Assembly: GCA_963804165.1 (NCBI GenBank)
Contig: CAWDPO010000024.1
Location: forward strand, 32,001 to 96,000
Reading direction: 5' to 3'
Source: an uncultured delta proteobacterium
GTDB lineage: Bacteria > Desulfobacterota > Binatia > UBA9968
DNA: 64,000 nt
Shown: in pieces, positions 7,481 to 25,503 of the stretch
Layout of the letters: each line of letters begins with the position of its first letter
How positions within the stretch are numbered: the stretch's first letter is position 1
Translations under genes and position numbers: made by a program
The notes under the pieces: generated by a model
What the model was told of the DNA's origin: nothing
The model's database searches: none
What the model saw: only the letters and a program-made list of their open reading frames with translations

Positions 7481-8038
7481 CTAGCGTGTAAGCGACAGGT
7501 TCACGCGCGCCAGCGCCTTCTCCGCCTCGGCGACTTCGAAGAACTCGCTCGGATGGAAACCGAACAGACCGGCGATCATGTTCGACGGAAACACTTGCTG
7601 CTTGGTATTATACTGGGTCACCAGGTCATTGTAGTATTGGCGCGCGAACGCGATCTGGTTCTCCGTCGTCGTCAGCTCTTCTTGCAGGTCCAAAACGTTT
7701 TTGCTGGCCTTCAGCTCAGGGTAGTTTTCCATCAGCACAAAAACCTTGCCCAACGATTGCGTCAGAGCGTTTTGCGCTTCAGCGGTTTCTTTGACCCCCT
7801 TCGACGCCATCGCCTGGCTGCGCGCGTCGATCACTTTCTGCAACGTATCCTGCTCGTACTGCATGTAGCCCTTGACGGTCTCGACGACGTTGGGGATCAG
7901 ATCGTAGCGCCGCTTGAGCTGTACGTCGATTTGTCTCCAGGCGTTCTGAATCCGTAGCCGCAACGCGGTGAGACCGTTGTACGTGGAGATGACCCAGATC
8001 CCAAGTACAAAGATGATGGCCCAGATCACGAATATCAT
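7481..8038 (-). CDS. lemA: LemA family protein
   Basis: N-terminal TM; NAWRQIDVQLKRRYDLIPN, ENYPELKAS, TENQIAFARQYYN. Confidence 0.92.
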   Translation of the reverse strand: MIFVIWAIIFVLGIWVISTYNGLTALRLRIQNAWRQIDVQLKRRYDLIPNVVETVKGYMQYEQDTLQKVIDARSQAMASKGVKETAEAQNALTQSLGKVFVLMENYPELKASKNVLDLQEELTTTENQIAFARQYYNDLVTQYNTKQQVFPSNMIAGLFGFHPSEFFEVAEAEKALARVNLSLTR

Positions 8039-9063
8039 AAGGCGCGCGCTCCTCCCCGCTCGTCGCGAAACAACATCGACTGGGTTATGTCGGCGATGCG
8101 CGCCGCGCCGGTCATGGTCATGACCCGCTGCATTTCCTCGGTGAGAATTGCGAACACGCGCTCGACGCCGCGCGCGCCGAAGGCGCCTAGGCCCCATGCC
8201 ACCGGCCGGCCGACAAGAACGGCCTTGGCGCCAAGCGCGAGCGCTTTGACGATATCGCCGCCGCTGCGAATACCGCTATCGAGCAGCACGGGAACCTTGC
8301 CGCCGACGCCATCGACAACTTCGGGCAGGGCTTCCAGCGCCGCGCGATTGTAGTCGAGAATCCGCCCGCCGTGGTTGGAAACGACCAGAGCGTCGGCGCC
8401 GGCATTCACCGCCGCGCGCGCGTCGTCACTGCCCATGATGCCCTTGACCACCACGGGCAGCGATACCTGCTGTTTCATCCATTCGATATCCTTCGTCGTC
8501 GATTTGTGGCCTTTGCGCGGCTTGCCGTCTTTGGTCGAAAGCGGCACTTCGTCGCCGATTTTGACCGGGCGAACCGTGTCCATGGTGATTCCCACCGCTG
8601 CGTAGCCGAGATCCTCCGACAACTTGGCGTAGTCGGATATCTCATCTCTGCCACGGTTCATGTAAGCCATGAACACCAGCGGCGACTTATCCGCGTCGCG
8701 CCAGTCTTTCGGATTGAACTTGGCTGCTTGACTGACAAACATCATCGCGCCGGCCTGATCGGTGCCTTCGGCGACTTGCCGTTCGGCATCTTTGCCGAAA
8801 AGAATGAAGCTTCCCACCGGTGCCGTGATCGCTGGAATCGGCAGCTTGTGGCCGAACAGCTCGATCGATATATCGGGCTCGGAAACATCGTGAAAAATCT
8901 TCTGGCGAAATAGATACTGGTGGAATGCGCGCGAATTGCGGTGAAACGTCGCTTTGGTCTCCGCCGCGCCGTTGAAATGTTCCCACGCCTCCGGCGGCGA
9001 TTGTTGCCGCATGAGGGCACGCAAGTCGCGCAGGCCCATTTGTTCAAGCGGTTTTTCGATCAT
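8035..9063 (-). CDS. FMN-dependent alpha-hydroxy acid oxidase/dehydrogenase family
   Basis: VVKGIM, VVSNHGGR, DSGIRSGGDIVKALALGA, VGRP. Confidence 0.9.
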   Translation of the reverse strand: MIEKPLEQMGLRDLRALMRQQSPPEAWEHFNGAAETKATFHRNSRAFHQYLFRQKIFHDVSEPDISIELFGHKLPIPAITAPVGSFILFGKDAERQVAEGTDQAGAMMFVSQAAKFNPKDWRDADKSPLVFMAYMNRGRDEISDYAKLSEDLGYAAVGITMDTVRPVKIGDEVPLSTKDGKPRKGHKSTTKDIEWMKQQVSLPVVVKGIMGSDDARAAVNAGADALVVSNHGGRILDYNRAALEALPEVVDGVGGKVPVLLDSGIRSGGDIVKALALGAKAVLVGRPVAWGLGAFGARGVERVFAILTEEMQRVMTMTGAARIADITQSMLFRDERGGARAL

Positions 9064-9070
9064 GAAAACC

Positions 9071-9922
9071 TCAGTTTGGAGAAACGACTTCCCAGCAGTT
9101 AGTGCCGGGATCCCGAAAACAGAACGAGGCGGTATCGTCAATTTCTTGCAGAGGAAACAGCTCGCTCACGCCGAGCTCTTTGCCCGATTCGTTGAACTCT
9201 CGATGAGCGTCCTTTACCGCGTCTTTCGAAACCACGGTCAGAGTATTGCGAAAGTTTGGCGAGAAAACCTTTGGATTCTCGCGCAGGGCGCAGACGATGT
9301 AAGTTTTCGTGCTTGGATGCTTCACGTAGATCACGTGACTGCTGAAGCGGTGCACTTCCAGGTTCAGAACCCTCGTGTAGAACTCTTTGTTGGCCTCCAA
9401 ATCGATCGCGACTAAAGTGCCGTGGGTAAACGCCTGCGGCACGTAGCCGCGCCCCGGAAAGCGTTCTTCCGGATAGATCTCTTCCCAGTGCGGCTTTTTT
9501 ACGCCGCCGAATTTTTGCGCCGCTGCCTCTTTGCGCGAAAAATCTTCGTAACATTCGATTTCCCAACCGTTGGTGCCCGGCTCGACGAAGTAGCAAGAAT
9601 AGGATCCATGGCTCCACGTCGGCTTGCCGATCGCGCCGAGCTTGTACTGCTGCTTATGCGCGGTCAGATACTCGTAGGCTTTGTCGACTTCCTCCGTCGT
9701 CATCACGCGCACGCCCCAGTGATTATGCATGGGTTTAGCGGCAGCGTCCTCCCCTGCTTCATGGAGCACCAATACCCAGGGAGAATTGGGATGTTTGAGG
9801 GTCGCTTCGTCCGGTTTTTCGGAAATTTTTTCAAACGCAAGCAACTCGGTCATCACCGCCATCGACTCCTGCAGATTGCGGCATTCCATGTGAGTCGCGG
9901 ATAGCGCGATGGGCTGAATCAT
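9071..9922 (-). CDS. Two-domain VOC (glyoxalase/dioxygenase) family protein
   Basis: Duplicated EPGTNGWEI / DPGTNCWEV motifs with His residues. Confidence 0.8.
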   Translation of the reverse strand: MIQPIALSATHMECRNLQESMAVMTELLAFEKISEKPDEATLKHPNSPWVLVLHEAGEDAAAKPMHNHWGVRVMTTEEVDKAYEYLTAHKQQYKLGAIGKPTWSHGSYSCYFVEPGTNGWEIECYEDFSRKEAAAQKFGGVKKPHWEEIYPEERFPGRGYVPQAFTHGTLVAIDLEANKEFYTRVLNLEVHRFSSHVIYVKHPSTKTYIVCALRENPKVFSPNFRNTLTVVSKDAVKDAHREFNESGKELGVSELFPLQEIDDTASFCFRDPGTNCWEVVSPN

Positions 9923-10029
9923 GGTGCTTCTCCTCAATTGATCGGCTGAATCCAAAGTCTAATGGCGAAATTTACAGCGGTCCGACCGGGGTGTCAAATT
10001 GACTCGTTCCAGACGGGAGTCTGGAACGA

Positions 10030-13634: not shown

Positions 13635-15021
13635 GGTAGCGTCAAGACTTGTGTGTAAATTTTAGGGGTAGCTGGAGCCAATTTTGATTCAAGTGATGAA
13701 ACACAGCGAAAACGATTCTTTGTAAGCTCTGGGTATGAGCCATCACACCCATCGGGCGAGTTCTTCGTCTGACTTCCCGAAACGCTCTTTCTATTAAGTT
13801 AGTGGTTCTCAATCGGCTCCACTGCTGTGAGTTCTTGATCTGAAAAAAGCTCAGGAGCTGATCGAAATCCTTCTTTAAGCAACCCACCGCTCTCGGATAA
13901 GCTTTTCTCCACCGCGCCGAGAATCGCCAGTAAGCCTGGGTCGCTTCTCGACGGTTGGCAGCATGGCTGATTCGGTTTAAAGCTTGCTTGACCGCCGGCT
14001 GATCTTTCTTTTTCACTTTGTCCAAGACGTTTCGGGTCTTATGGGCCCAGCAGCGCTGCAAAACGATCTTGGGATAGACGATCTGTAAAGCTTGATGGAG
14101 TCCCGTGCCGCCATCGGTGGCGATCAACTCACATGGGCTCCCCGTAAGTCCCCGTTTATACAGATCGGCTAAAAACGCTTCCCAGCACGCCCCCGATTCA
14201 CTGTGCGGGATAAAAATCAATCATCTCATGGCGGCCTTCCACCGTGATGCCGAAGGCACAAAGTAAGATCTTCTTTTGCACCTTGACCGCTCCTTTGCTC
14301 TTTAACACTACGCCATCGAAGAATAGATACTGATATTGATCCTTGAGCGCACGGCCGTGATAGCCACTGACCTCCTGGTCCAAATCCCGCGCGATGCGCG
14401 AAATCGTGGAGGCCGAGACCTTCTCTCCCAGCACAGGAGCCAGCACTGAGGCGGCTTTGCGCGTCGACAGCCCTAAACAAAAACAGGCCAACAACACCTT
14501 ATCGACCGAGCGGCAGCGCCGGGCATAGCGCTCAAAGAGCTTGGAAGGAAACTTTCCCCTACGGCATCTCGGCACTAAAAGCTCGATATCTCCCATCTCG
14601 GTCAACAGATGTCTTACATAGTGACCATTTCTATAATCGTGCCGATCCCTGGCATGCTCGTAGCGAGAGACTCCCAAATAATCCGCCATCTCTTGGTCCA
14701 AGCGGTTCTCCAAAAACTCCTTGAGAGCCTGGCGCGCCATCGGCTTAAAGTCTCCCTCCCATTCAAAACCGTTGATCTCCTTAATCGCGCGCGATACATT
14801 GCCGGCTGTTGCTGGCTCGAGCAGCATCGGGGTGCCCTCCTGATGTTTGTGTTGGTCGCACAACTCTGGAGTTAGCACCCCTTCTCTGTTTTCCCAATCA
14901 ACAAATGCCCTAGCTCTTACCCCTAACCATCTCCCGATCGTGCTGCTTCGGCCAAATCTGAAAGCCATTTTTCCCCATTCCCTCTCTCCCCACCCAATTT
15001 ACACACAATTCATACATCACC
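13635..15021 (-). mobile_element. IS256-family insertion sequence (~1.39 kb) with 9-bp target-site duplication
   Basis: Imperfect TIRs GGTAGCGTCAAGACTTGTGTGTAAATTT / GGTGATGTATGAATTGTGTGTAAATTG; direct repeat CGCGAGCGA at 13626-13634 and 15022-15030. Confidence 0.92.
13642..14827 (-). CDS. IS256 (Mutator-like) DDE transposase; frameshift near 14200
   Basis: YRNGHYVRHLLTEMGDIELLVPR, GLSTRK, FFDG, TDG, QRCWAHKTRN, RTTNLIERAFREVRRR. Confidence 0.9.
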
Positions 15022-16856: not shown

Positions 16857-17414
16857 TTAAGATTTTGCATCCTGCTTGTCTCTCACCGCCTGCATCTCCT
16901 CCAAACATCCCGCGCACATGTAGGCCGCGTGCGGCAGAAAGATCAATTCATCGGTTTCCCGCGGCTCCATGCAAATGCCGCAAAGGCGACTTTCTTTTGC
17001 CTTGGCTTTGGCCGTTTTAGTCTTGGCTTTTTCGCTGGTGTCGACCTCTTGGGCAATGATGTTCTTGCAAAGCTCGACGCATTCGTCACAGATGTGCACC
17101 GACGGCCCGGCAACGAGTTTGCGTACCTCGCTTTGATTCTTGCCGCAAAATGAACACGAAGAATGTTTGGTGTCATCGTCGACTCTCGGAACGTGAGCAT
17201 CCCAATCCTCGCCCATCGCTTTCTTAAGCGTTTCTTCGAGCGCGCTTCCGATCTGGAACAATTGCCGGGCTATTTCTCCTCTTTTCGGCGGGCTCTTGGA
17301 ATCGAGAAATTTACCGACCGACTGCTGAAACTGCCGCAGCGCCGCGCCGTATCTCTGCTCACTCACCAAATCGGCGCACTCCACAAAACCAAACTTGGAC
17401 AGGGTTTTCGCCAT
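16857..17414 (-). CDS. ClpX C4-type zinc-finger domain protein (no ATPase domain)
   Basis: [30 protein letters not shown] plus a second CGIC...CAGC pair. Confidence 0.8.
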
Positions 17415-17728
17415 AGGCGTTTCTCCTAGTTTCCTTGTAAAAACCCAAAGCGTTGACGGTGCAAATGGAACGGCGATGAGGGTTTGAAATGAGCGCACCG
17501 CCTAAGAACCTTTTACACCCTAATGCGCACTACACTCAAACGGCGGGAATGACTAATCGGCCTGGGATTTTTTTCGGCGCCAGGAATTTTTCACAATCAA
17601 CGTCGTGAAGTGAGGATTCCTCGCCTCCATTCAACACACAACACAAGCGAGCCGAGCGAAGCCTTAGGTGTTAACTTCGTCGAATGATCACCGTTCGTTA
17701 GAGCTTAGAGACGATTACTGAAGCCGTT

Positions 17729-18546
17729 CTACACCCGCTGGACTTCCAGGTAGAGCAAACTGTGATCCGAGAAATCTTTGATCCACTGGTCCTTCGCCGC
17801 CGTGGTCGCTTGGTTTGTCCAGCCGCGCACGTCGACTTCAGCCTTGGTGTCGTCGGGGCGGGTGAACGATTTGAATTTAAGATGATTGAAGCGTAGACAT
17901 GGTCGAGATTGCTGTCGGGGATCGATGAGCCTGAGCCGTTGGACCAAGAAGCGTCGTGGATCTTAGCGAGCCTACGCATATCGTAGTATTGAGATGCCCG
18001 CATGTCCCATTTCTTGAGCTCGGTCACCACATTGATATCTCTCTGATACGGGTAATCCAAGCCCATCGTATTCAGGTCGCCGAGAAATAAGTAGTGGGCT
18101 TTGCCACCGGCCGCCGCATCGAGGGTTTTGCGAAACTTGATGGAGCGGATGGCCATGTCGTCGCGCAAACCGAAACCGCGCGGCTCATTATTGCTCGCTA
18201 GATGAAGGAAAAGAACGCAATAGGACACACCAGCAACAGTAAGGGTGACCAATAGTCCCGGTCGCATCGACGTGGTGCCCGATTTAAATTCGAGCTTTTG
18301 CGTGAAAAATGCCGAGATCGATGCGCGCACGCCGACGAGGATCTCCTGGCTTTCCTCACCTTCGGTGATTTGGAACGTGTAGCCGGGAAACTTCGCCGTA
18401 ACACTGGCGAAGATTTCTCTGCTCTCGTAAAGAGCCAATACGTCCGGATCCTGCAATGCGATATAAGCGACGACGCGATCGACGCGGCTCGCATCGTTCT
18501 TGAAATGCTCGACGTTCCATGACGCGATCGAAAAGGCTTTTGCCAT
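17729..18546 (-). CDS. Endonuclease/exonuclease/phosphatase (EEP) family protein; frameshift ~17880
   Basis: SWNVEHF, LGDLNTMG, LDHVY; continues in ORF 17729..17947 ending FSDHSLLY. Confidence 0.85.
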
Positions 18547-18608
18547 ACGGTTCTCTCATGTGACGAATGGTCTGTGCGGTGCAAACGGCCGGCAGGGCTT
18601 CGCAAGGT

Positions 18609-19355
18609 CTAAATCATAACGGTTCCGCAGTTGATATTATACGCTTGGCCGGTGATATACGCCGCCGCGTCGCTGGCGAGGAAAAGAATCGGGCCGGCGA
18701 TATCGTCGGGCTCGAGGACGCGGCCCAACGGTGTCGCCCGCAAACGCGCCATCGTTTCCTCTTCCGAGCGGTGGCGCCGCGGCATATCGGTATTGGCGGA
18801 GCCGGGGCAGATCGCGTTAACGGTGATACCGTCGGGACCGAGCTCCCGCGCCAACGCTTTAACGAAGCCGATGATTGCGGCTTTCGACGCAGCGTAGTCG
18901 GCGAACTCGCGGGCGCCGGTGTGGGCGATCGACGAGGCGATGCTGAGAATGCGACCGCTCTTTTGTCGGCGCATGGCCGGGACGAAGGCCCGCGCGCAGA
19001 GAAAATTGCCGCCCAAGTTAATATCGATTGTCCGATCCCAATCTTCCTCGCTCTTGTCGACGACCGGCGCTTTAAGATAGATGCCGGCATCGTTGACCAG
19101 GATATCGACACGACCGAAACGCTCCAGGGTCTGATCCGCAAGCCGTTTCACCGACGTCTCGCTGGCAACATTGACCTCGATTGCAATCGCGTCTGTTCCG
19201 AGGGCCTGCGCTTCATCCGCCACGCTCTTGGCTCTTTCGCCTTGCAAGTCTACGATGACAACTTTAGCCCCTTCGCGGCCCATGCCTAGTGCGATCGCCC
19301 GCCCGATGCCTTGAGCGCCGCCGGTAATCACCGCCACTTTGTTCCGCAAGCGCAT
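18609..19355 (-). CDS. Short-chain dehydrogenase/reductase (FabG-like)
   Basis: TGGAQGIG, NDAG, YAASK, NAICPG. Confidence 0.92.
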   Translation of the reverse strand: MRLRNKVAVITGGAQGIGRAIALGMGREGAKVVIVDLQGERAKSVADEAQALGTDAIAIEVNVASETSVKRLADQTLERFGRVDILVNDAGIYLKAPVVDKSEEDWDRTIDINLGGNFLCARAFVPAMRRQKSGRILSIASSIAHTGAREFADYAASKAAIIGFVKALARELGPDGITVNAICPGSANTDMPRRHRSEEETMARLRATPLGRVLEPDDIAGPILFLASDAAAYITGQAYNINCGTVMI

Positions 19356-19357
19356 GG

Positions 19358-20095
19358 CTATAGCAGCCCTCCGTTGCAGTGGAACAATTGCCCCGTGATC
19401 GCGTCGCTTTCAGGAGTCGTGAGAAAATAATAAAGCTCCGCAAGGTCTTCCGGCTGGCCCGTTCGTCCGAGCGGGATCGACGAATGCCAGCGTTGCCGGC
19501 GCGCTTCGGGAGTTTCTTTTTCCATCACTCGCGGTGTGTCCGTCGGGCCGGGGGCGACGGTGTTGACGCGAATCCCGTCCGGCGCCAGTTCCAGAGCCAA
19601 ACTCTTGGTAAACGCAATGATGCCGGCTTTGGCGGCAGAATAAGGCGCGCGCAGCGCCGAACCGGTCACTCCGTAGTTGGACGCGGTGTTGAGAATCCGG
19701 CCGCTCTTATGTTTCTGCATGATCGGCGCCACTTCACGGCACATGAGGAACGTCCCCTTCAAGTTGGTGTCGATGACTTTCTTCCATTCGGCCCAGGTGA
19801 AATCTTCGATGCGCTTCGTATAGAAACTGCCGCCGGCGATGTTCGCCAACACGTCGATGCGGCCAAAGCGCTGCGCGACAGCGCTGACGACGGCTTTGAC
19901 TTCGCGCGCGACCGTGACATCGACCGACAACGCGTCAGCATTACCGCCCGCGTCTACGATCTCCGCGCGCACCTGCTCCGCGGCCGCGTGATCGAAATCC
20001 GCCACGATCACGGTCATCCCGGCGGCGGCCATGCGATGCGCGACGGCTCGGCCGATGCCGTTGCCTCCGCCAGTGATCAATGCGACTTGATTCAC
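19358..20095 (-). CDS. Short-chain dehydrogenase/reductase (FabG-like)
   Basis: TGGGNGIG, YSAAK, NTVAPG. Confidence 0.92.
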   Translation of the reverse strand: MNQVALITGGGNGIGRAVAHRMAAAGMTVIVADFDHAAAEQVRAEIVDAGGNADALSVDVTVAREVKAVVSAVAQRFGRIDVLANIAGGSFYTKRIEDFTWAEWKKVIDTNLKGTFLMCREVAPIMQKHKSGRILNTASNYGVTGSALRAPYSAAKAGIIAFTKSLALELAPDGIRVNTVAPGPTDTPRVMEKETPEARRQRWHSSIPLGRTGQPEDLAELYYFLTTPESDAITGQLFHCNGGLL

Positions 20096-21885
20096 CGTTC
20101 GTTAACCTCCACGAGCGACGAATAAATCCCGTCGATTACTGTTTGATACCGCAGCGCGACGGCTTTGCGGTCGACTTTGACCTTTTGAAAAACATTGATG
20201 CTCCGCACCTCGGCGGGAAAATCGTCCCTGACGATGGCAAATTCACGGATTCTTTCGTAGTGCTCCAGGCGCTCATTAACGCGCGCGAGCTGCGACGCCA
20301 ACGCCGCGCGCATTTCGATATCCGTCAAGGCGGCATCCGCGCATCCGAGAAATTCCGCGATCCGGCGTCGCTCGGGAACGACGAGGGCCGCGATAAACGG
20401 CCGGTGGTCGCCAAGCAAAACCGCTTGGCGGATAAATGGCTCATTCTCCAACTGCAGCTCGATGAAAGCCGGGTAGATATTGGATCCTTCCGCGCAATAA
20501 AAAACATCCTTTTTTCGGCCGATGATTCTCAGCGAGCCGTCGGGATCGAGCGCGCCGAGGTCGCCCGTGTAGAACCAGCCGTCCGCATCAAACACTTCAC
20601 GCGTCGCCTCGGGATCGTGAAAATAACCCGGCGAAACCGTGGGCCCGCGCACGAGGATCTCCGCATCGCCGGCGATACGGACTTCGACGTTGGGAAAAGG
20701 CTTGCCCAAATTGCCCGGCCGATTCTCGCCGATACCGCAAAGAGTGACGCCGCCGCACTCGGTTGAACCATAGGAACCGAGCAACGGGATGCCGATCAAT
20801 TCGAAGAATCGCATGATCCGCGGCGGCATCGCCGCACCGCTGTAAGTGATATATTTGATGCGCCCGCCGAGCGCTGTGCACGCGGCGTCCTTGAGACCGA
20901 TTCTTAGCTCTTCAAATTTCATGCGATCGGAGGCACTAAGCCCATCCTTGGTTTTTTTCTGATCAAGCGCCTCGAGCACTTCCCAGCGTTGTCGATGACC
21001 CTCCTGGTCGAGAATGCCTTTCCATATTCGCTCCATGACTCGCGGCACTACCGCCATCACCGTTCCCGCCAAAGACTCGATCACGCCGAGATCCAGGCCC
21101 AATTCCGTCGCTTCGACGATCGCGGTGGTCCTGCCGGTAACGGCGCTCTTCAAAAGGCCGAATCGCCCAAGCAAGTGGTTGAGGCTCAGGACAATCACAA
21201 GCAATTCATCCGGTCTGCTGACTGTAATCTCGCGGCCGTTCGTAATGTTGGACAAGAGATTGTCTTGTGTGCGCATAACCCCTTTCGGCTCGCCCGTTGA
21301 GCCGGAGGTGTACATGATCGTCGCGAGATCGTGCGCATGCACGGATTCGAGAATTTCTTCCAGCCGTGCGGGGTTGATGCGCCGGCCTTTTTCCACCAAG
21401 TCATCAAAGGAAAACGTGTTTGGCAACGCTGTGCCGGTTCTCTGCATAATGAAAAGATGCGTCAACGCCGGAAGTTGTCCCTTCAGATTGAGTAACCTAC
21501 CGACGTCCGTTTCATCTTGAATAAAAGCTGCGCGACATTGGGAATGATCGAGCACCTTGAGAAGCATGCGCTCGGAGAAGGCGGGTGAAATCACCACATT
21601 TGGAAATCCGCCTGCCAAAGTCGCCAGATCGGCGCAAACCCTCTCGACGCTGGTTTCACCGATGATCGCTACGGCGTCTCCCGGAGTCAGACCGACGGCG
21701 TACAATGCCAGAAGAGTGTTTTGGACGAGCGCGCCGACATCGCGCCAGGTAATCTCTTCCATGCCGCTGTCTCTTTGAAATTTGATGCACGTGCGATCGG
21801 CAAACTCTTTAACCCTTCGGAAAAAAATTTGGCCGATATGGCGGCCCTGCGAAAAATCAACGAAAGGCGCGGTCCGAGAGCTCAT
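20092..21885 (-). CDS. AMP-dependent ligase, long-chain acyl-CoA synthetase (FAA1-like)
   Basis: IMYTSGSTGEPKGV, SYGSTE, GWFYTGDLG, IIGRKKD. Confidence 0.9.
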   Translation of the reverse strand: MSSRTAPFVDFSQGRHIGQIFFRRVKEFADRTCIKFQRDSGMEEITWRDVGALVQNTLLALYAVGLTPGDAVAIIGETSVERVCADLATLAGGFPNVVISPAFSERMLLKVLDHSQCRAAFIQDETDVGRLLNLKGQLPALTHLFIMQRTGTALPNTFSFDDLVEKGRRINPARLEEILESVHAHDLATIMYTSGSTGEPKGVMRTQDNLLSNITNGREITVSRPDELLVIVLSLNHLLGRFGLLKSAVTGRTTAIVEATELGLDLGVIESLAGTVMAVVPRVMERIWKGILDQEGHRQRWEVLEALDQKKTKDGLSASDRMKFEELRIGLKDAACTALGGRIKYITYSGAAMPPRIMRFFELIGIPLLGSYGSTECGGVTLCGIGENRPGNLGKPFPNVEVRIAGDAEILVRGPTVSPGYFHDPEATREVFDADGWFYTGDLGALDPDGSLRIIGRKKDVFYCAEGSNIYPAFIELQLENEPFIRQAVLLGDHRPFIAALVVPERRRIAEFLGCADAALTDIEMRAALASQLARVNERLEHYERIREFAIVRDDFPAEVRSINVFQKVKVDRKAVALRYQTVIDGIYSSLVEVNER

Positions 21886-23255
21886 AGCTGCTCAAAGTGT
21901 GCAGGGTCATATTTCGCCCTGGCGGGGTCTTCGACTCGTTTGAGACCCTTGATTTCGTGACGATGCGCGTACGAATAGAGAACCGCTTCGGTCACGTCAT
22001 CCATGTGTCCGCGCAAGTACTTGCGCGCCGGGATGGCGAGTCGGAGCAGCTCTACGCCGCGGCGAGCCTGGCTTGGCGCCGCCGGCGGGCCCTTGGTCAA
22101 GCGAACGCCGGACATATGATAAACGAACGCCGCCAATGCTTCGGCGGGAAAGTGCTCCGGCGACAAATGCGGCAGAAATGCTTTGACGTCAATAAAAACC
22201 GCGTGACCGCCCGCCGGTCTCACCAACGGCACGCCGTCACTTAGCCGGTGCCAAAGATAGTTCACTTGTCCGACTCGGTTTGCCATGGTCGACTCGGACG
22301 CAAAAATTTCTTCCAGAGACGTGGCCAGGAGCTCCATGGCACCGCCGGGCAGTTGAACCCCGTCGATAAACGCCTGCACGGAGGCTTTTTGGTAACTTGC
22401 CCTATCGCGCGTCATTATGAATCCGCCTGACGATACCAACAGATCTTTGAGCGCGCTCATGGTGCATGCATCCGCCAGCGCGCAGGTTTCTCGGACGATC
22501 TCACGCAACGTGCGGTCGTGATAACCCTGTTCTCGCTCTTTGACCAGGAAACTGTTCTCGAGGATGCGGCAGGCATCGAGAAAAAGTGGAATCTTGTGCG
22601 CCGTGGCCAGGGTTCTGAGTGCTTTGAGATTGGCGAGAGACACCGGATGGCCGCCACAGGCATTGACACAGAGCTCGACGTAGATGCAGCTAAACGTTTC
22701 AGCGCCGTGTCGCTCGATTGCCGCGGCCAACATTTCGACATCCACGTTGCCCTTAAACGGATTGCTTGACACCAGATCGTGGGCGGACTCGGTAATCACG
22801 TCGATGATTTTAGCGCCGTTCGTCTCGATATGGTTGCGCGTTGAGGGAAAGAGCATGTTACCGGCAACCACGGTGTTGGGCTTGATGTTGATCTTCGTCC
22901 AAATCCGCTCCGCGGACCGGCCTTGCGTGGTCGCGACGACGAAAGGAAAACCAAAGGACTGTCGAATTTGCTCGGAGAGGAGCGCGTAAGAGCGGCTTCC
23001 CTCAGCGGCCAGCCCCATGCCCGGCTCCGCAAACTTCGAGCCGGCCAAGGCGGATAACTGGCTCGTGCTCAGTGAGCTGACACCGCTGTCCGTGCAAAGA
23101 TCGATGTAGATCAGGTCCTGGGGAAGGAGTTCTGTGTTGTAATGCGCCGCACGCAGCGTCTCGTCGCGCTCGTCCAGGGTCGTTTGACGCAGCGGTCGCA
23201 CGACGGCGATTTCGTACGGCACTGAAAAAATTGTCCCTAACGAGCCCGCTTTCAT
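21882..23255 (-). CDS. Divergent tryptophanase/tyrosine phenol-lyase family PLP enzyme
   Basis: IDLCTDSG, GSRSY, QGRSAE, DACR, MSALKD (PLP Lys), GGHAVF, LRLAIPARKY; the catalytic Tyr segment is altered. Confidence 0.85.
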   Translation of the reverse strand: MKAGSLGTIFSVPYEIAVVRPLRQTTLDERDETLRAAHYNTELLPQDLIYIDLCTDSGVSSLSTSQLSALAGSKFAEPGMGLAAEGSRSYALLSEQIRQSFGFPFVVATTQGRSAERIWTKINIKPNTVVAGNMLFPSTRNHIETNGAKIIDVITESAHDLVSSNPFKGNVDVEMLAAAIERHGAETFSCIYVELCVNACGGHPVSLANLKALRTLATAHKIPLFLDACRILENSFLVKEREQGYHDRTLREIVRETCALADACTMSALKDLLVSSGGFIMTRDRASYQKASVQAFIDGVQLPGGAMELLATSLEEIFASESTMANRVGQVNYLWHRLSDGVPLVRPAGGHAVFIDVKAFLPHLSPEHFPAEALAAFVYHMSGVRLTKGPPAAPSQARRGVELLRLAIPARKYLRGHMDDVTEAVLYSYAHRHEIKGLKRVEDPARAKYDPAHFEQL

Positions 23256-23328
23256 GCCGCCCATTCACCTAAATCCATCGGACTCTGGATAGCACGAAAC
23301 TATCGGATTGAAAATCAGAAGTCGATTT

Positions 23329-24138
23329 TCACGGGTTTCTCTGCGCTCCGGGTGAACGGTTTGGCCGCTGCCGCGCGGCAAGCATCGACCACGCCCGGTG
23401 TACCATTTTGCGCTCGGTTGCGAATTTGAGCTGCTTGACGGCCTGTTCGATTGGAAACCAGCGCACGTCATCCGCCTCATGATCGTGATCGCGCACGTCG
23501 CCCCTGAGGTAGCGCAACAAATAGAAATGAACCCGCTTATAGATGCGCACCGGCTCGTGTCCTTCTTTCTCGCGGTAGGAATAACCGATGTCGCCCAGTT
23601 TCCTTATGACCTTTCCTTCGAGACCGGTTTCCTCACGCACTTCGCGCAGCGCCGCTTGCTCCACGCTCTCCCGCTCTTCGACATGTCCTTTCGGCAGTCC
23701 CCAGCGATTGCGCGTGTGGATCAGGGCGACTTCAAGATCATCGCCGATTTTTTTGTAGATCACACCGCCTGCCGAGATTTCTTTGATCGTTCGAATGCCA
23801 TCTTCTTTCAGCGGCGCGCTCGCCGGCGCCTGCTCCTGAAGCCATTGGAGATATCCTGCGCTGCCGGCGATGAGCGGCACCGCGACGATCTCCGGCACCG
23901 AATAGCTGTGCAGCTCGCGCACCTTTTTTTCCAGCGCAGGAAACAGCTCCCTGCGGGTCTTAATGATGAGCAGTTCTTCTTCGCTCTGTTCGACTTGGCC
24001 TTGCCAGCGATAGGTCGACTGAATCGATTTGATCCGATTCACGCACGCCGCAAGTCTTTCACCGACCAGCGTTTGGGCCAGTTGCTCGGCCTCTTTCGCG
24101 GATCCCGCAGTCACGTAAACAATGATAAATTCGAGCAT
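23329..24138 (-). CDS. CutA1 (divalent cation tolerance) - Nudix hydrolase fusion
   Basis: N-terminal [26 protein letters not shown]; C-terminal Nudix box [23 protein letters not shown]. Confidence 0.85.
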
Positions 24139-24283
24139 CGTCGTTAATCTTACAACTCACTTTTATGGACAGTCAATCAACCCGGCGAAAAGAGCGAAAC
24201 GAACCCATCAAGGCTTCGAGGATCGAAGCAAGACAAGCCCGTGGTGTTGCCTCCTGCCTGTCGGCTAATCTAATTTGACCTTG

Positions 24284-25000
24284 ATGCGAACCAAAAACGA
24301 AATCCGCGAACAGATTTGGAAGTTGTTACAAAAGAGTAAAGTCGCCCGCTTCCCCGGAGCTGAAGGACGCATACCGAACTTCATCGGCGCCGAGGCGTGC
24401 GCCAAGCACGTTTCTGAAACTCTGCATTGGAAAACAGCAAGGGTTCTAAAGGCCAACCCCGACTCACCGCAACGCGCCATCAGACACAAAGCGCTGGCCG
24501 AAGGCAAGATCGTTTATATGGCCGTGCCGCGGCTCCGCAGCGACAAGCCTTTCATCGAGCTCGACCCGAAGAAGCTAAAATGTTCGCCCTTCGTGGCGTC
24601 CTCGATCAAAGGCGCGACGCAATACGGCCGGCCGGTGAGGTTGGCTGAAGTGAGAAAAATCGATTTGGTTGTTTGTGGTTCGGTCGCGGTGAATCGCCAC
24701 GGCGCCCGGGTCGGTAAAGGCGGCGGTTACTCGGATCTGGAATTCGCGTTGCTCACCGAGGAAGGTAAAATCGGACCCAAGACACCGATCGTCACGTCGG
24801 TTCATCCGCTGCAAATCGTCGACGAAAAGATTCCGATGACCGAACATGATATCCCGCTCAGCGCGATCGCGACGCCGACGGAGACCATTGATTTGCAACC
24901 GCCATTTGCACGTCCCCAAGGTATTTACTGGCACTTGTTACCACAGGAAAAAATCGACGACATACCCGTCCTGGCACGGCGCGCGAAGTATCGTCCGTGA
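24284..25000 (+). CDS. 5-formyltetrahydrofolate cyclo-ligase-like protein (archaeal/MTHFSD type)
   Basis: GRIPNFIGA, KANPDSPQ, GSVAV..GARVGKGGGYSDLE, MTEHDIP. Confidence 0.85.
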   Translation: MRTKNEIREQIWKLLQKSKVARFPGAEGRIPNFIGAEACAKHVSETLHWKTARVLKANPDSPQRAIRHKALAEGKIVYMAVPRLRSDKPFIELDPKKLKCSPFVASSIKGATQYGRPVRLAEVRKIDLVVCGSVAVNRHGARVGKGGGYSDLEFALLTEEGKIGPKTPIVTSVHPLQIVDEKIPMTEHDIPLSAIATPTETIDLQPPFARPQGIYWHLLPQEKIDDIPVLARRAKYRP

Positions 25001-25074
25001 GTTTCGTCGCTCGGATCGCCATATTGAAGGCCCCCGGTATCTATGTTAGCTAAACAAGTTCGAGGAAAGCGCCA

Positions 25075-25467
25075 ATGACAGAGGTAAATATCGACTTCGC
25101 GAAGGGCAACGGTCTGGTTCCGGTGATCGTACAGGATTACCAATCGCGTGAAGTCTTGATGGTCGCATATATGAACGAAGAAGCCTGGGAAAAAACCAAG
25201 GAAACCGGCAAAGCTCATTACTACAGCCGGTCGCGCAAGGGTCCTTGGTTCAAAGGCGAAGAATCGGGGAATTTTCAGGAAGTCAAAGATGCCTACATCG
25301 ATTGCGATAACGACACCATCTTGCTGCAGGTCAATCAGATCGGCGGCGCCGCCTGTCACGAAGGTTATCGCAGTTGTTTCTTCCGCAAGCGTGCCGGCGG
25401 CGACTGGAATGTCATAGCCGAGCGCGTGTTTGATCCCAAAGAGGTCTACAAAAAATCGTCGCGATGA
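25075..25467 (+). CDS. hisI: Phosphoribosyl-AMP cyclohydrolase
   Basis: [32 protein letters not shown]. Confidence 0.96.
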
Positions 25468-25470
25468 CGA

Positions 25471-25503
25471 TTCAACGTTCAAGGTTCAAAGGTTCAACGT
25501 CAA
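25471..25503. repeat. GTTCAA heptamer array in the hisI-hisG spacer
   Basis: ttcaacgttcaaggttcaaaggttcaacgtcaa; same unit as at 1396-1460 and 6473-6503. Confidence 0.7.

Follow-up and report, generated by a model that had tools for sequence, protein, structure and literature searches.

Here, we describe a pair of genes encoding a pyridoxal phosphate (PLP)-dependent lyase without the catalytic tyrosine of the tyrosine phenol-lyase (TPL)/tryptophanase (TnaA) family (P0001), and an adenylate-forming ligase (P0002). Both lie in a 64,000-nucleotide stretch of DNA, the whole of which we call the window (G000:C24:32001-96000), from an uncultured soil bacterium of the Binatia group whose assembly (G000; 46 contigs totalling 7.5 Mb) has 81% completeness and 5% contamination. 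Lyase and ligase constitute one dispensable cassette located between a CutA-NUDIX gene and an older pair of short-chain dehydrogenase/reductase (SDR) genes, and, as read from the sequence, the pair points to an undescribed reaction. Our combined interpretation, in which P0001 would be a heteroatom β-lyase rather than a Tyr/Trp lyase, with the ligase as its functional partner and the SDRs as genomic backbone, is one on which we stand evenly divided. The features involved are as follows.

21882..23264, minus strand: PLP lyase of the TPL/TnaA fold, Tyr-less clade (P0001); open reading frame (ORF) of 460 aa with a Beta_elim_lyase domain
23004..23006, minus strand: codon of Ala87, opposite the general acid Tyr71 of TPL in the phmmer alignment; Tyr in 0 of 121 homologues
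22446..22451, minus strand: codons of Leu272-Lys273, aligned opposite TPL Lys256-Lys257; PLP lysine kept, its neighbour lost
20092..21885, minus strand: adenylate-forming ligase of the FadD11/long-chain acyl-CoA synthetase type (P0002; 597 aa; AMP-binding and AMP-binding_C_3), co-inherited with the lyase
21882..21885, minus strand: ATGA overlap of lyase stop and ligase start, read in the sequence (ctATGAgc)
20092..20095, minus strand: GTGA overlap of ligase stop and SDR-A start, read in the sequence (cgGTGAat)
19358..20095, minus strand: SDR-A (P0003), classical SDR of 245 aa with a GTG start (adh_short); backbone neighbour, kept without lyase and ligase
18609..19355, minus strand: SDR-B (P0004), classical SDR of 248 aa (adh_short); backbone neighbour
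23329..24138, minus strand: CutA1-NUDIX fusion (P0005); conserved upstream neighbour, present with or without the lyase

A preliminary description of this region, made from the sequence, had proposed four genes with 4-bp overlaps at two junctions and a 2-bp gap at the third, and direct reading of the junctions bears out this layout; between SDR-A and SDR-B, TAG is followed by cc and then ATG. A second in-frame ATG of the lyase (Met4) is located at 23255, the end coordinate given in that description, ~10 nt past an AGGTGA. It is the likelier start because the AGGTGA is at normal spacing and most homologues, 457 aa in length, begin at its equivalent.

P0001 is related over its full length to both textbook enzymes of the family. 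Its best PDB sequence matches were TPL (1c7g/1tpl; phmmer E 1.1e-94 over residues 15–458, 37–38% identity), followed by tryptophanases (E 3e-77 to 7e-68). An AlphaFold2 model computed from 33 sequences reached a mean predicted local distance difference test score (pLDDT) of 90, and its weakest internal stretch was residues 70–90 (pLDDT 63–65), the loop that would hold Tyr71. The structural comparison with TnaA and TPL that had been proposed as a check returned the same fold: Foldseek aligned the model to TPL with a TM-score of 0.89, to full-length tryptophanase chains with 0.83–0.87 (0.77 in the case of 4up2, a shorter chain), and to 9cen, a thiocysteine-lyase SH domain from the guangnanmycin polyketide synthase (PKS), with 0.76. 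P0001 passed PF01212 (Beta_elim_lyase, 147 bits, cut-off 27) and, as the sole curated family model, the broad NF009709 'tryptophanase' subfamily (389 bits, cut-off 285). It fell below the cut-offs of the equivalogs for TPL (TIGR02618, 379.2 against 720.7 bits) and TnaA (TIGR02617 and NF053783, 301.9 and 303.3 against 825.8 and 750 bits).

The differences are concentrated in the substrate pocket. In TPL, Lys257 is the α-proton base, Tyr71 the general acid and Arg381 the general base, while Thr124 holds the phenol hydroxyl and Phe448 and Phe449 contact and strain the ring; the available text of the source ties five of these residues, Tyr71, Arg381, Thr124, Phe448 and Phe449, to C–C cleavage (PMC10170061). 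All five are replaced in the alignment of P0001 with TPL of Citrobacter freundii (Tyr71 to Ala87, Thr124 to Pro140, Arg381 to Lys391, Phe448 to Tyr452 and Phe449 to Asp453), as is Lys256 (Leu272), whereas the PLP lysine (Lys257 = Lys273) and Arg100 (Arg116), Asn185 (Asn201), Asp214 (Asp230), Arg217 (Arg233), His343 (His354) and Arg404 (Arg408) are kept. Four extra residues immediately precede the Tyr71 position. Alignment is uncertain at this insertion, where the cation-site residue Glu69 of TPL falls opposite Pro81 by phmmer or opposite Leu85 in the register used previously, and where the invariant Glu80 of the inserted EPGMGLA adjoins the residue opposite Glu69. Having lost the apparatus by which an aromatic leaving group is protonated, oriented and strained, P0001 should be unable to act as a Tyr/Trp C–C lyase. 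The preliminary description had reported the catalytic Tyr as absent, citing the strings MGLAAEGSRSY, MSALKD, DACR and QGRxAE, all of which are present in the translation, the last as QGRSAE; Ala87 opposite Tyr71, and the absence of Tyr from this position in 121 homologues, confirm that reading. Its further suggestion that the enzyme does not produce indole or phenol gains support from the failed TPL and TnaA equivalogs together with the replacement of all five C–C cleavage residues.

This altered pocket is a property of a conserved clade. A word-index search gave 1055 proteins at E ≤ 0.001 among 8000 candidates scored, and the best 120 of the 1055, which are those listed, are 66–90% identical to P0001. 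The resulting alignment comprises 121 homologues with 66–90% identity to P0001 and at least 60% to one another. In it, position 87 is Ala in 77, Pro in 17, Val in 13, Thr in 9, Ser in 2 and Gln, Met and Gly in one each, never Tyr, and no conserved Tyr occurs within residues 74–94. Position 272 is Leu in 119 of 121 sequences and Met in the other two, and Lys273, Arg116, Asn201, Asp230, Arg233, His354 and Arg408 are present in all. The substitutes are themselves invariant or nearly so (Pro140, Leu272, Lys391, Tyr452 in 117 of 121, and Asp/Glu453), as are the inserted EPGMGLA, Glu88 (114), NMLFPSTR, ELxVNxCGG with Cys203 (118), DACR, TMSALKD, GPPxAPSQ and Arg449-x-Lys451-Tyr452-[DE]-Pro. Forty-nine positions are ≥95% conserved in the clade yet occur in <15% of 39 canonical representatives carrying Tyr and Lys-Lys. 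Pairwise ratios of nonsynonymous to synonymous substitution (dN/dS) against three orthologues, rough because dS exceeds 1, were 0.11–0.15 for the lyase, 0.14–0.18 for the ligase, 0.05–0.08 for the SDRs and 0.08–0.10 for CutA-NUDIX. The absence of Tyr from 121 homologues, combined with a dN/dS of 0.11–0.15, therefore indicates a working enzyme with a rebuilt pocket and not decay.

Among the genomes searched, the clade is found only in family f1. A search of 61 relatives gave matches at E ≤ 0.001 in 30 genomes; f1 contributed 28 of its 36, f2 one of its 5, by a 42% fragment, and f3 none of its 19. The matches listed in the word-index search come from 'Candidatus Binatia' or 'Deltaproteobacteria' metagenome-assembled genomes. 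A sample of the phylum (401 genomes, 255 genera) yielded the clade only in G000 and one more f1 genome (64% identity). The other ten matching genomes of that sample reached at most 40% identity, and all nine rows checked (eight further phylum-sample loci and L034) carried Tyr. G000, at 81% assembly completeness, holds no second TPL/TnaA-type gene, P0001 being the single match; PF01212 was otherwise matched there by weak hits and by one 352-aa open frame (336 bits), which from its length and score we take to be of the threonine-aldolase type.

On a wider scale, an exhaustive search of 50%-identity representatives gave 2758 proteins at E ≤ 0.001, in which the window clade is represented by P0127 (60% identical) and fragments. 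In a midpoint-rooted FastTree of 100 domain rows (coverage ≥85%), read for its topology only, the window clade groups with P0136 and P0145, next to P0144, P0138 and P0139; further out stand P0148 and P0268 and then a set including P0163, P0172, P0182, P0208, P0224, P0236 and P0239. On this branch, Tyr71 and Lys256 are both missing from nearly all members and position 140 is mostly Pro, and the rest of the tree consists of TPL-type (Y..FT..KK..FF) and TnaA-type (Y..FD..KK..HF) rows. A pattern scan of contigs for outgroup Tyr-less lyases returned 80 loci in which 95 of 96 domain rows had Tyr and Lys-Lys and the remaining row was a fragment, the patterns being common to ordinary enzymes. A metagenome scan with P0136 returned 20 loci, none close to P0136; 18 were of the window clade (56–65% identical to P0001) and L137 was a 37% relative. 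No solved structure for the Tyr-less branch was found in the PDB sequence search, and literature searches found no paper on this branch or on a free-standing Tyr-less clade with a ligase partner.

Members of the Tyr-less branch repeatedly partner with adenylating enzymes. By Pfam scan, the 1036-aa protein P0148 carries a lyase followed by AMP-binding and AMP-binding_C_3, the same order as in the window. The lyase part, which likewise lacks Tyr and Lys256, shares 38% identity with P0001; the ligase part shares 30% with P0002 along the full length and scores 249 bits with P0002 versus 211 bits with the only paralogue in G000 (C43:148011-149780); P0002 and that paralogue score 224 bits. On a different sub-branch, at ~35–40% identity, 5 of 25 Tyr-less representatives (P0171, P0182, P0195, P0208 and P0239; 708–770 aa) bear an N-terminal ThiF domain in the Pfam scan. 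Literature searches found no description of this ThiF–lyase architecture, and a term search in a ThiF review gave no mention of PLP or lyase (PMC12596934). A search for longer, fused forms of the window clade gave only five tandem double-lyases and no ligase fusion.

Two-copy TPL-like proteins were encountered as a separate architecture. Ten such proteins (864–928 aa; P0129–P0134, P0141–P0143 and P0146) were collected, with further cases in G072, G151 and G277. All ten keep the 'AYA' motif of Tyr71 in the first copy, whose PLP lysine is lost or PLP-binding motif altered in seven (P0129, P0130, P0132, P0133, P0141, P0142 and P0146). The second copy keeps Lys-Lys and has no Tyr in eight of ten (P0131 and P0143 keep Tyr). 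These motifs suggest that each double-lyase is a pseudo-heterodimer in fused form, whose two copies together build one composite active site.

The ligase is a divergent member of the long-chain acyl-CoA-synthetase group, as judged by its profile matches and motifs. P0002 exceeded the Pfam cut-offs for PF00501 (204 bits, cut-off 29.9) and PF23562 (46 bits, cut-off 20.8), and YTSGSTGEPKG, YGSTE, TGD, GRKKD and a C-terminal Lys, which we take to be the adenylate-forming (ANL) core motifs, are invariant in 18 orthologues. The region DGWFYTGDLG...GRKKD is presumably the fatty-acyl-CoA-synthetase signature. Its best curated match, FadD11 (NF038343), reached 188.7 bits, below the cut-off of 950, and P0002 came closest in the PDB to the adenylation domains of carboxylic-acid reductases (E 9e-32 to 7e-27). 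The two SDRs score above the cut-offs of PF00106/PF13561 and retain the motifs TGxxxGxG and YxxxK. They failed the FabG equivalogs (TIGR01830, cut-off 297.75, and NF004198, cut-off 296), with 218 and 209 bits for P0003 and 224 and 237 bits for P0004, and their PDB neighbours include hydroxyacyl-CoA dehydrogenases and BbsD. Each has an Asp at the end of strand β2, which we assume to suggest NAD rather than NADP.

We examined the inheritance of these genes at 18 loci from relatives, 20 metagenome loci and 8 further loci, bearing in mind that counts across kin are not independent and that several assemblies are fragmented. One unpublished genome (G005) is included in the genome tallies, and no conclusion rests on it. 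The shared gene order runs EutA, TPR, Fer4, OadA-like, HisG and MTHFS (the last two on the opposite strand), CutA(-)NUDIX, lyase, ligase, SDR-A, SDR-B, a ClpX-zinc-finger protein and, further on, VOC, FMN_dh, LemA and M48; as this order is common across the family, much of the synteny is simply inherited. Of the 33 lyase loci with sufficient 3' sequence, 31 have the ligase immediately after the lyase; of the other two, L026 (G018) has a gap of ~300 bp ahead of SDR-A, and L125 continues from the lyase into a VOC gene. SDR-A comes next in 24 of the 30 loci that are informative for it, and the remaining six (L032, L033, L119, L121, L125 and L131) contain the lyase, or lyase and ligase, without the SDR pair; VOC and FMN_dh follow instead in L032, L125 and L131, and in L033 only FMN_dh matched.

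Losses of the cassette are more telling than its presence. Across 37 f1 genomes, lyase and ligase occur together in 25, the lyase alone in G018 and neither gene in 8; G017 contributes a ligase fragment at a contig start and is uninformative for the lyase. In G023, a ligase without its first 117 residues directly follows CutA-NUDIX and the lyase is gone, and in G007 only lyase residues 360–460 and ligase residues 486–589 remain. Three genomes (G021, G009 and G008) represent clean losses, where CutA-NUDIX is followed, after 160–280 bp, by SDR-A and then SDR-B; judged from coordinates alone, G005 is spaced in the same way. In G019 and G027 the genes occupy several frames, which probably reflects assembly indels because the neighboring CutA-NUDIX and SDR genes are broken likewise. 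When the SDR pair is concatenated (27 rows), its maximum-likelihood tree resolves the three clean losses as three separate events even when only well-supported branches are considered. They share one 9-row subclade with two remnant loci and one ligase-only loss, and the other subclade of 11 rows, which includes the window, has both genes throughout, bar one uninformative row. Lyase and ligase have thus been lost or have decayed together at least five times. The SDRs are backbone, because they are kept next to CutA-NUDIX without lyase and ligase, are missing from 6 of 30 loci, and have relatives in lyase-free families (SDR-B at 54–58% identity in 3 of 5 f2 and 9 of 9 f3 genomes). The SDR pair and CutA-NUDIX are older neighbours, independent of the cassette. 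The earlier proposal is retained in part: the lyase is indeed linked to an adenylating enzyme (31 of 33 loci, 25 genomes), and the SDRs are not part of the inherited unit. A coupled four-gene unit, whose conservation had been put forward as the test, is not borne out as proposed, given G021, G009 and G008, which keep the SDR pair without the other two genes, and the six loci without SDRs; only lyase and ligase hold together, and the SDR pair is separable.

In our proposed mechanism, the lyase would bind PLP and the carboxylate of an amino acid, remove the α-proton and form a quinonoid. It would then perform an α,β-elimination or β-replacement on an amino acid whose β-substituent leaves without a general acid. 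The likeliest type of substrate would be an S-substituted cysteine, from which C–S cleavage would probably release a sulfur compound along with pyruvate and ammonia. C–S elimination is favoured because TPL itself acts on Ser, Cys and S-methyl-Cys (PMC10170061), because replacement of Tyr71 affects different substrates unequally (PMC3870968), and because the characterised Tyr-less relatives are C–S lyases: according to the available parts of the sources, lyase domains embedded in PKSs lack the equivalents of Tyr71 and Arg381 (PMC3870968) and act as cysteine or thiocysteine lyases (PMC8479088). The ligase might subsequently turn the acid released by the lyase into a coenzyme A (CoA) thioester, as part of a salvage or catabolic route. 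We tentatively favour this lyase-first sequence, at clearly less than even confidence, because of the gene order, the dispensable and peripheral nature of the cassette and the large catabolic repertoire of the genome. The data themselves establish the fold, the pattern of residues and its conservation, the co-inheritance and the repeated joint loss; which group leaves, which way the reaction runs, how the steps are ordered and whether CoA is the acceptor are inferred. As to the repertoire, a LigXa-like Rieske oxygenase from locus L125 gave ~45 tblastn matches on 19 contigs of G000, and the host is probably a broad degrader of aromatic compounds. A 326-aa protein of the same locus, without a Pfam match, gave ~30 tblastn matches in G000.

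Several observations weigh against this interpretation. Ligases of this type mostly take long fatty acids and are a poor fit to a small thiol-acid. The 4-bp overlap of ligase and SDR-A favours co-translation with the SDRs in the window genome, co-loss of neighboring genes can stem from single deletions, and HisG, MTHFS, the TPR protein and the OadA-like gene are also conserved around the pair, consistent with largely inherited synteny. An intact lyase is retained without the ligase in G018 and at L125. No transporter, regulator or sulfur gene was found travelling with the pair among the conserved neighbours. The conserved charged residues Lys391, Arg449, Lys451, Glu88 and Asp/Glu453 are placed in the putative pocket by alignment alone. 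P0148 is represented by a single sequence from one 37-kb contig; a frame error at an ATGA-type overlap could have created its junction, and its ligase part is barely nearer to P0002 (249 bits) than to the other G000 paralogue (211 bits).

Of the alternatives, the one that survives best, though we consider it unlikely, is a single four-gene pathway in which the SDRs would oxidise or reduce the lyase–ligase product, for example a hydroxyacyl- or oxoacyl-CoA. The genes share one strand and are joined through two overlaps, ATGA and GTGA, and a gap of 2 bp; SDR-A succeeds the ligase in 24 of 30 informative loci, and both SDRs retain TGxxxGxG and YxxxK, have hydroxyacyl-CoA dehydrogenases and BbsD among their PDB neighbours, and presumably are NAD-type dehydrogenases by the Asp at the end of β2. 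The SDRs may be co-transcribed with the cassette in the window genome, although the cassette can do without them. The ligase/SDR-A overlap is confined to that genome and its close kin; elsewhere the tblastn matches lie ~10–25 bp apart. Against a four-gene pathway stand the SDR pair beside CutA-NUDIX in the three clean-loss genomes (G005 likewise, by coordinates only), its absence from the six loci listed above, an evolutionary rate about half that of lyase and ligase, and the SDR-B relatives in lyase-free families.

Also unlikely, but a serious competitor to the lyase-first order, is the reverse sequence, in which the ligase would adenylate an acid, the thiol of L-Cys would attack the acyl-adenylate, and the lyase would cut the S-acyl-cysteine into a thiocarboxylic acid, pyruvate and ammonia. 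Loss of Tyr71 would be tolerable here because a thiocarboxylate leaves without a general acid. The fusion of Tyr-less relatives to ThiF/E1-like domains, carboxylate-adenylating enzymes unrelated to the ligase (5 of 25 representatives), fits such a scheme, and adenylation itself rather than the CoA thioester would be the common denominator of the partners; those fusions are on a different sub-branch at ~35–40% identity. S-acyl-cysteine readily rearranges to N-acyl-cysteine, which counts against the scheme, as do the lack of a known TPL-fold enzyme for such chemistry, the absence of a sulfur-carrier or downstream user gene near the pair, and a pocket with conserved charged residues that is not evidently fatty. 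PtmA3 of the PtmA3–PtmU4 thioacid cassette reportedly works not with a PLP lyase but with a CoA-transferase-like partner supplied by sulfur-carrier proteins. A non-homologous precedent exists in 6-thioguanine biosynthesis, where, in the available account, YcfA adenylates and adds Cys and the PLP C–S lyase YcfC cleaves the cysteine adduct (PMC12494993). YcfC has a cysteine-desulfurase fold and YcfA is a PP-loop ATPase, and neither is homologous to the window proteins. Two-gene thioacid cassettes such as PtmA3–PtmU4, composed of an acyl-CoA synthetase and a sulfur-transfer protein, are said in the available text to be prevalent in bacteria (PMC6006322); the likeness lies in two genes of which one is an acyl-CoA synthetase, the difference in a partner that is a sulfur-transfer protein, and the comparison with the window pair was made by description only.

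Generalised beyond the window, free-standing Tyr-less lyases of the TPL fold would form a third functional class, C–S lyases that serve carboxylate-adenylating enzymes and yield a thiocarboxylate from an activated carboxylate and cysteine. We hold this to be rather unlikely. If true, it would constitute a PLP-based route to thioacids without a cysteine desulfurase or a sulfur-carrier protein, and the partners would be ANL ligases (the window and P0148) and ThiF/E1-like domains (the fused relatives).

Improbable, in our estimate, is that the two genes are unrelated neighbours, P0001 being a stand-alone β-lyase for cysteine, cystine, cystathionine or serine and the adjacency of the ligase incidental. 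Cys, Ser and S-methyl-Cys are already substrates of TPL and TnaA as far as the available text goes (PMC10170061), G018 and L125 have the lyase without the ligase, and the whole region is syntenic by descent. The occurrence of both genes in 25 genomes, the remnants of both in G007 and their joint deletion in G023, the same lyase–ligase order in the distant P0148, and the similar rates at which the two genes evolve argue the other way.

A condensing enzyme, in which the quinonoid carbanion would attack an acyl-CoA or acyl-AMP made by the ligase in a Claisen-type reaction, as alpha-oxoamine synthases do, to form an SDR-reducible amino-ketone lipid, as in sphingoid-base synthesis, would account for the retention of the α-proton machinery alongside the loss of the leaving-group machinery, for a ligase of the fatty-acid type and for the SDRs downstream. 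As a weak lead concerning domain make-up only, the language-model neighbours of P0148 were fusions of AMP-binding, carrier and Aminotran_1_2 (alpha-oxoamine synthase) domains (0.93, 164–169 shared features), a result below the tool's level for likely family membership. These fusions resemble the pair in joining a fold-type-I PLP domain to an adenylating domain. They differ in that their PLP domain is Aminotran_1_2 and not Beta_elim_lyase (P0001 gave no match to PF00155 in the Pfam scan) and that they need a carrier domain, absent at the window locus. No TPL-fold enzyme is known to condense, and the SDRs are separable from the pair and both look NAD-type, so that we regard condensation as distinctly doubtful. 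The weakest alternative, a hidden Tyr/Trp C–C lyase using another acid such as Tyr452 (117 of 121, in place of the Phe448 that touches the substrate ring in TPL according to the available text of PMC10170061) or a residue of a partner subunit, as when Tyr71 is supplied by another copy in tandem-fused relatives, is highly improbable given that Thr124, Arg381 and Phe449 are lost too, that both equivalog scores are below about half of their cut-offs, and that G000 (assembly 81% complete) has no second TPL/TnaA-type gene to lend a Tyr.

Set against known systems, P0001 shares with TPL (EC 4.1.99.2; Citrobacter freundii, Erwinia herbicola; 1TPL, 2EZ1, 1C7G) full-length homology, the PLP lysine and the cofactor and carboxylate binders. 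It departs from TPL in six replaced pocket residues, a 4-residue insertion, a Glu69 that falls opposite Leu or within the insertion, and an equivalog score of 379 versus 720.7. With TnaA (EC 4.1.99.1; E. coli, Proteus vulgaris, B. thetaiotaomicron) it shares the fold and the PLP-binding core, but lacks the Tyr and the Lys-Lys pair and has Pro where the TnaA type has Asp. The SH domains of leinamycin-family PKSs (LnmJ, GnmT; 9CEN) are likewise Beta_elim_lyase relatives without Tyr71 and Arg381, and theirs is C–S cleavage according to the available text of the sources (PMC3870968, PMC8479088). They are more distant (E 5.8e-28 to P0001 and 5.4e-28 to P0172; 24% identity to P0001) and act on carrier-bound adducts within PKS modules, beside a DUF domain, whereas P0001 is a free-standing protein of 457 aa with a ligase. 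A Tyr-less TPL relative that cuts C–S bonds is therefore already known; a free-standing clade with a ligase partner was not found described.

TPL and tryptophanase are textbook PLP enzymes after which databases name every relative, and among the clade matches listed the source names read 'tyrosine phenol-lyase' or 'tryptophanase' in 38 of 38. These labels, and the phenol or indole production by these soil bacteria that would follow from them, are almost certainly wrong because the conserved clade has replaced the residues enabling C–C cleavage. The reaction, once worked out, would provide a new specificity, and possibly new sulfur chemistry, for a much-used biocatalyst scaffold. The locus also illustrates that tight gene overlaps and within-family synteny can overstate the size of a pathway.

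Further features of the window are listed below.

17698..18546, minus strand: endonuclease/exonuclease/phosphatase-like (EEP-like) gene P0006, an ORF
8035..9955, minus strand: two-domain VOC/glyoxalase gene and flavin mononucleotide (FMN)-dependent 2-hydroxy-acid dehydrogenase gene; orthologues directly after the ligase or lyase in other genera
13642..14968, minus strand: Mutator-family transposase, split in two overlapping ORFs (192 and 256 aa)

No Rfam match at E ≤ 1 was present within 17000–25500. The promoter scan gave 2 sites versus 3.1 expected, not above chance, one of them 9 bp 5' of the CutA-NUDIX start, and the terminator scan gave 12 sites versus 8.9 expected, again not above chance. 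Among the sequencing runs listed for the locus, none was RNA; seven DNA runs contained 0.06–0.11 of the sampled words.

P0006 aligns with its orthologues over residues 1–220 only and its final 60 residues look out of frame, which may reflect a frameshift or an assembly indel. The VOC gene overlaps the FMN_dh gene (LldD-like, below cut-offs), and other genera have this pair immediately after the ligase or lyase (L125, L131, L032 and L128); in the window genome, ~8.6 kb, transposase included, separates it from the cluster. On the basis of these positions, a link of VOC/FMN_dh to the keto-acid product of the lyase is possible. Finally, CutA1 and a MutT1-like NUDIX are fused in the window and its genus and occur as adjacent separate genes in related families (G037, G041, G043 and G045) and at several metagenome loci, and thus represent a conserved pairing.

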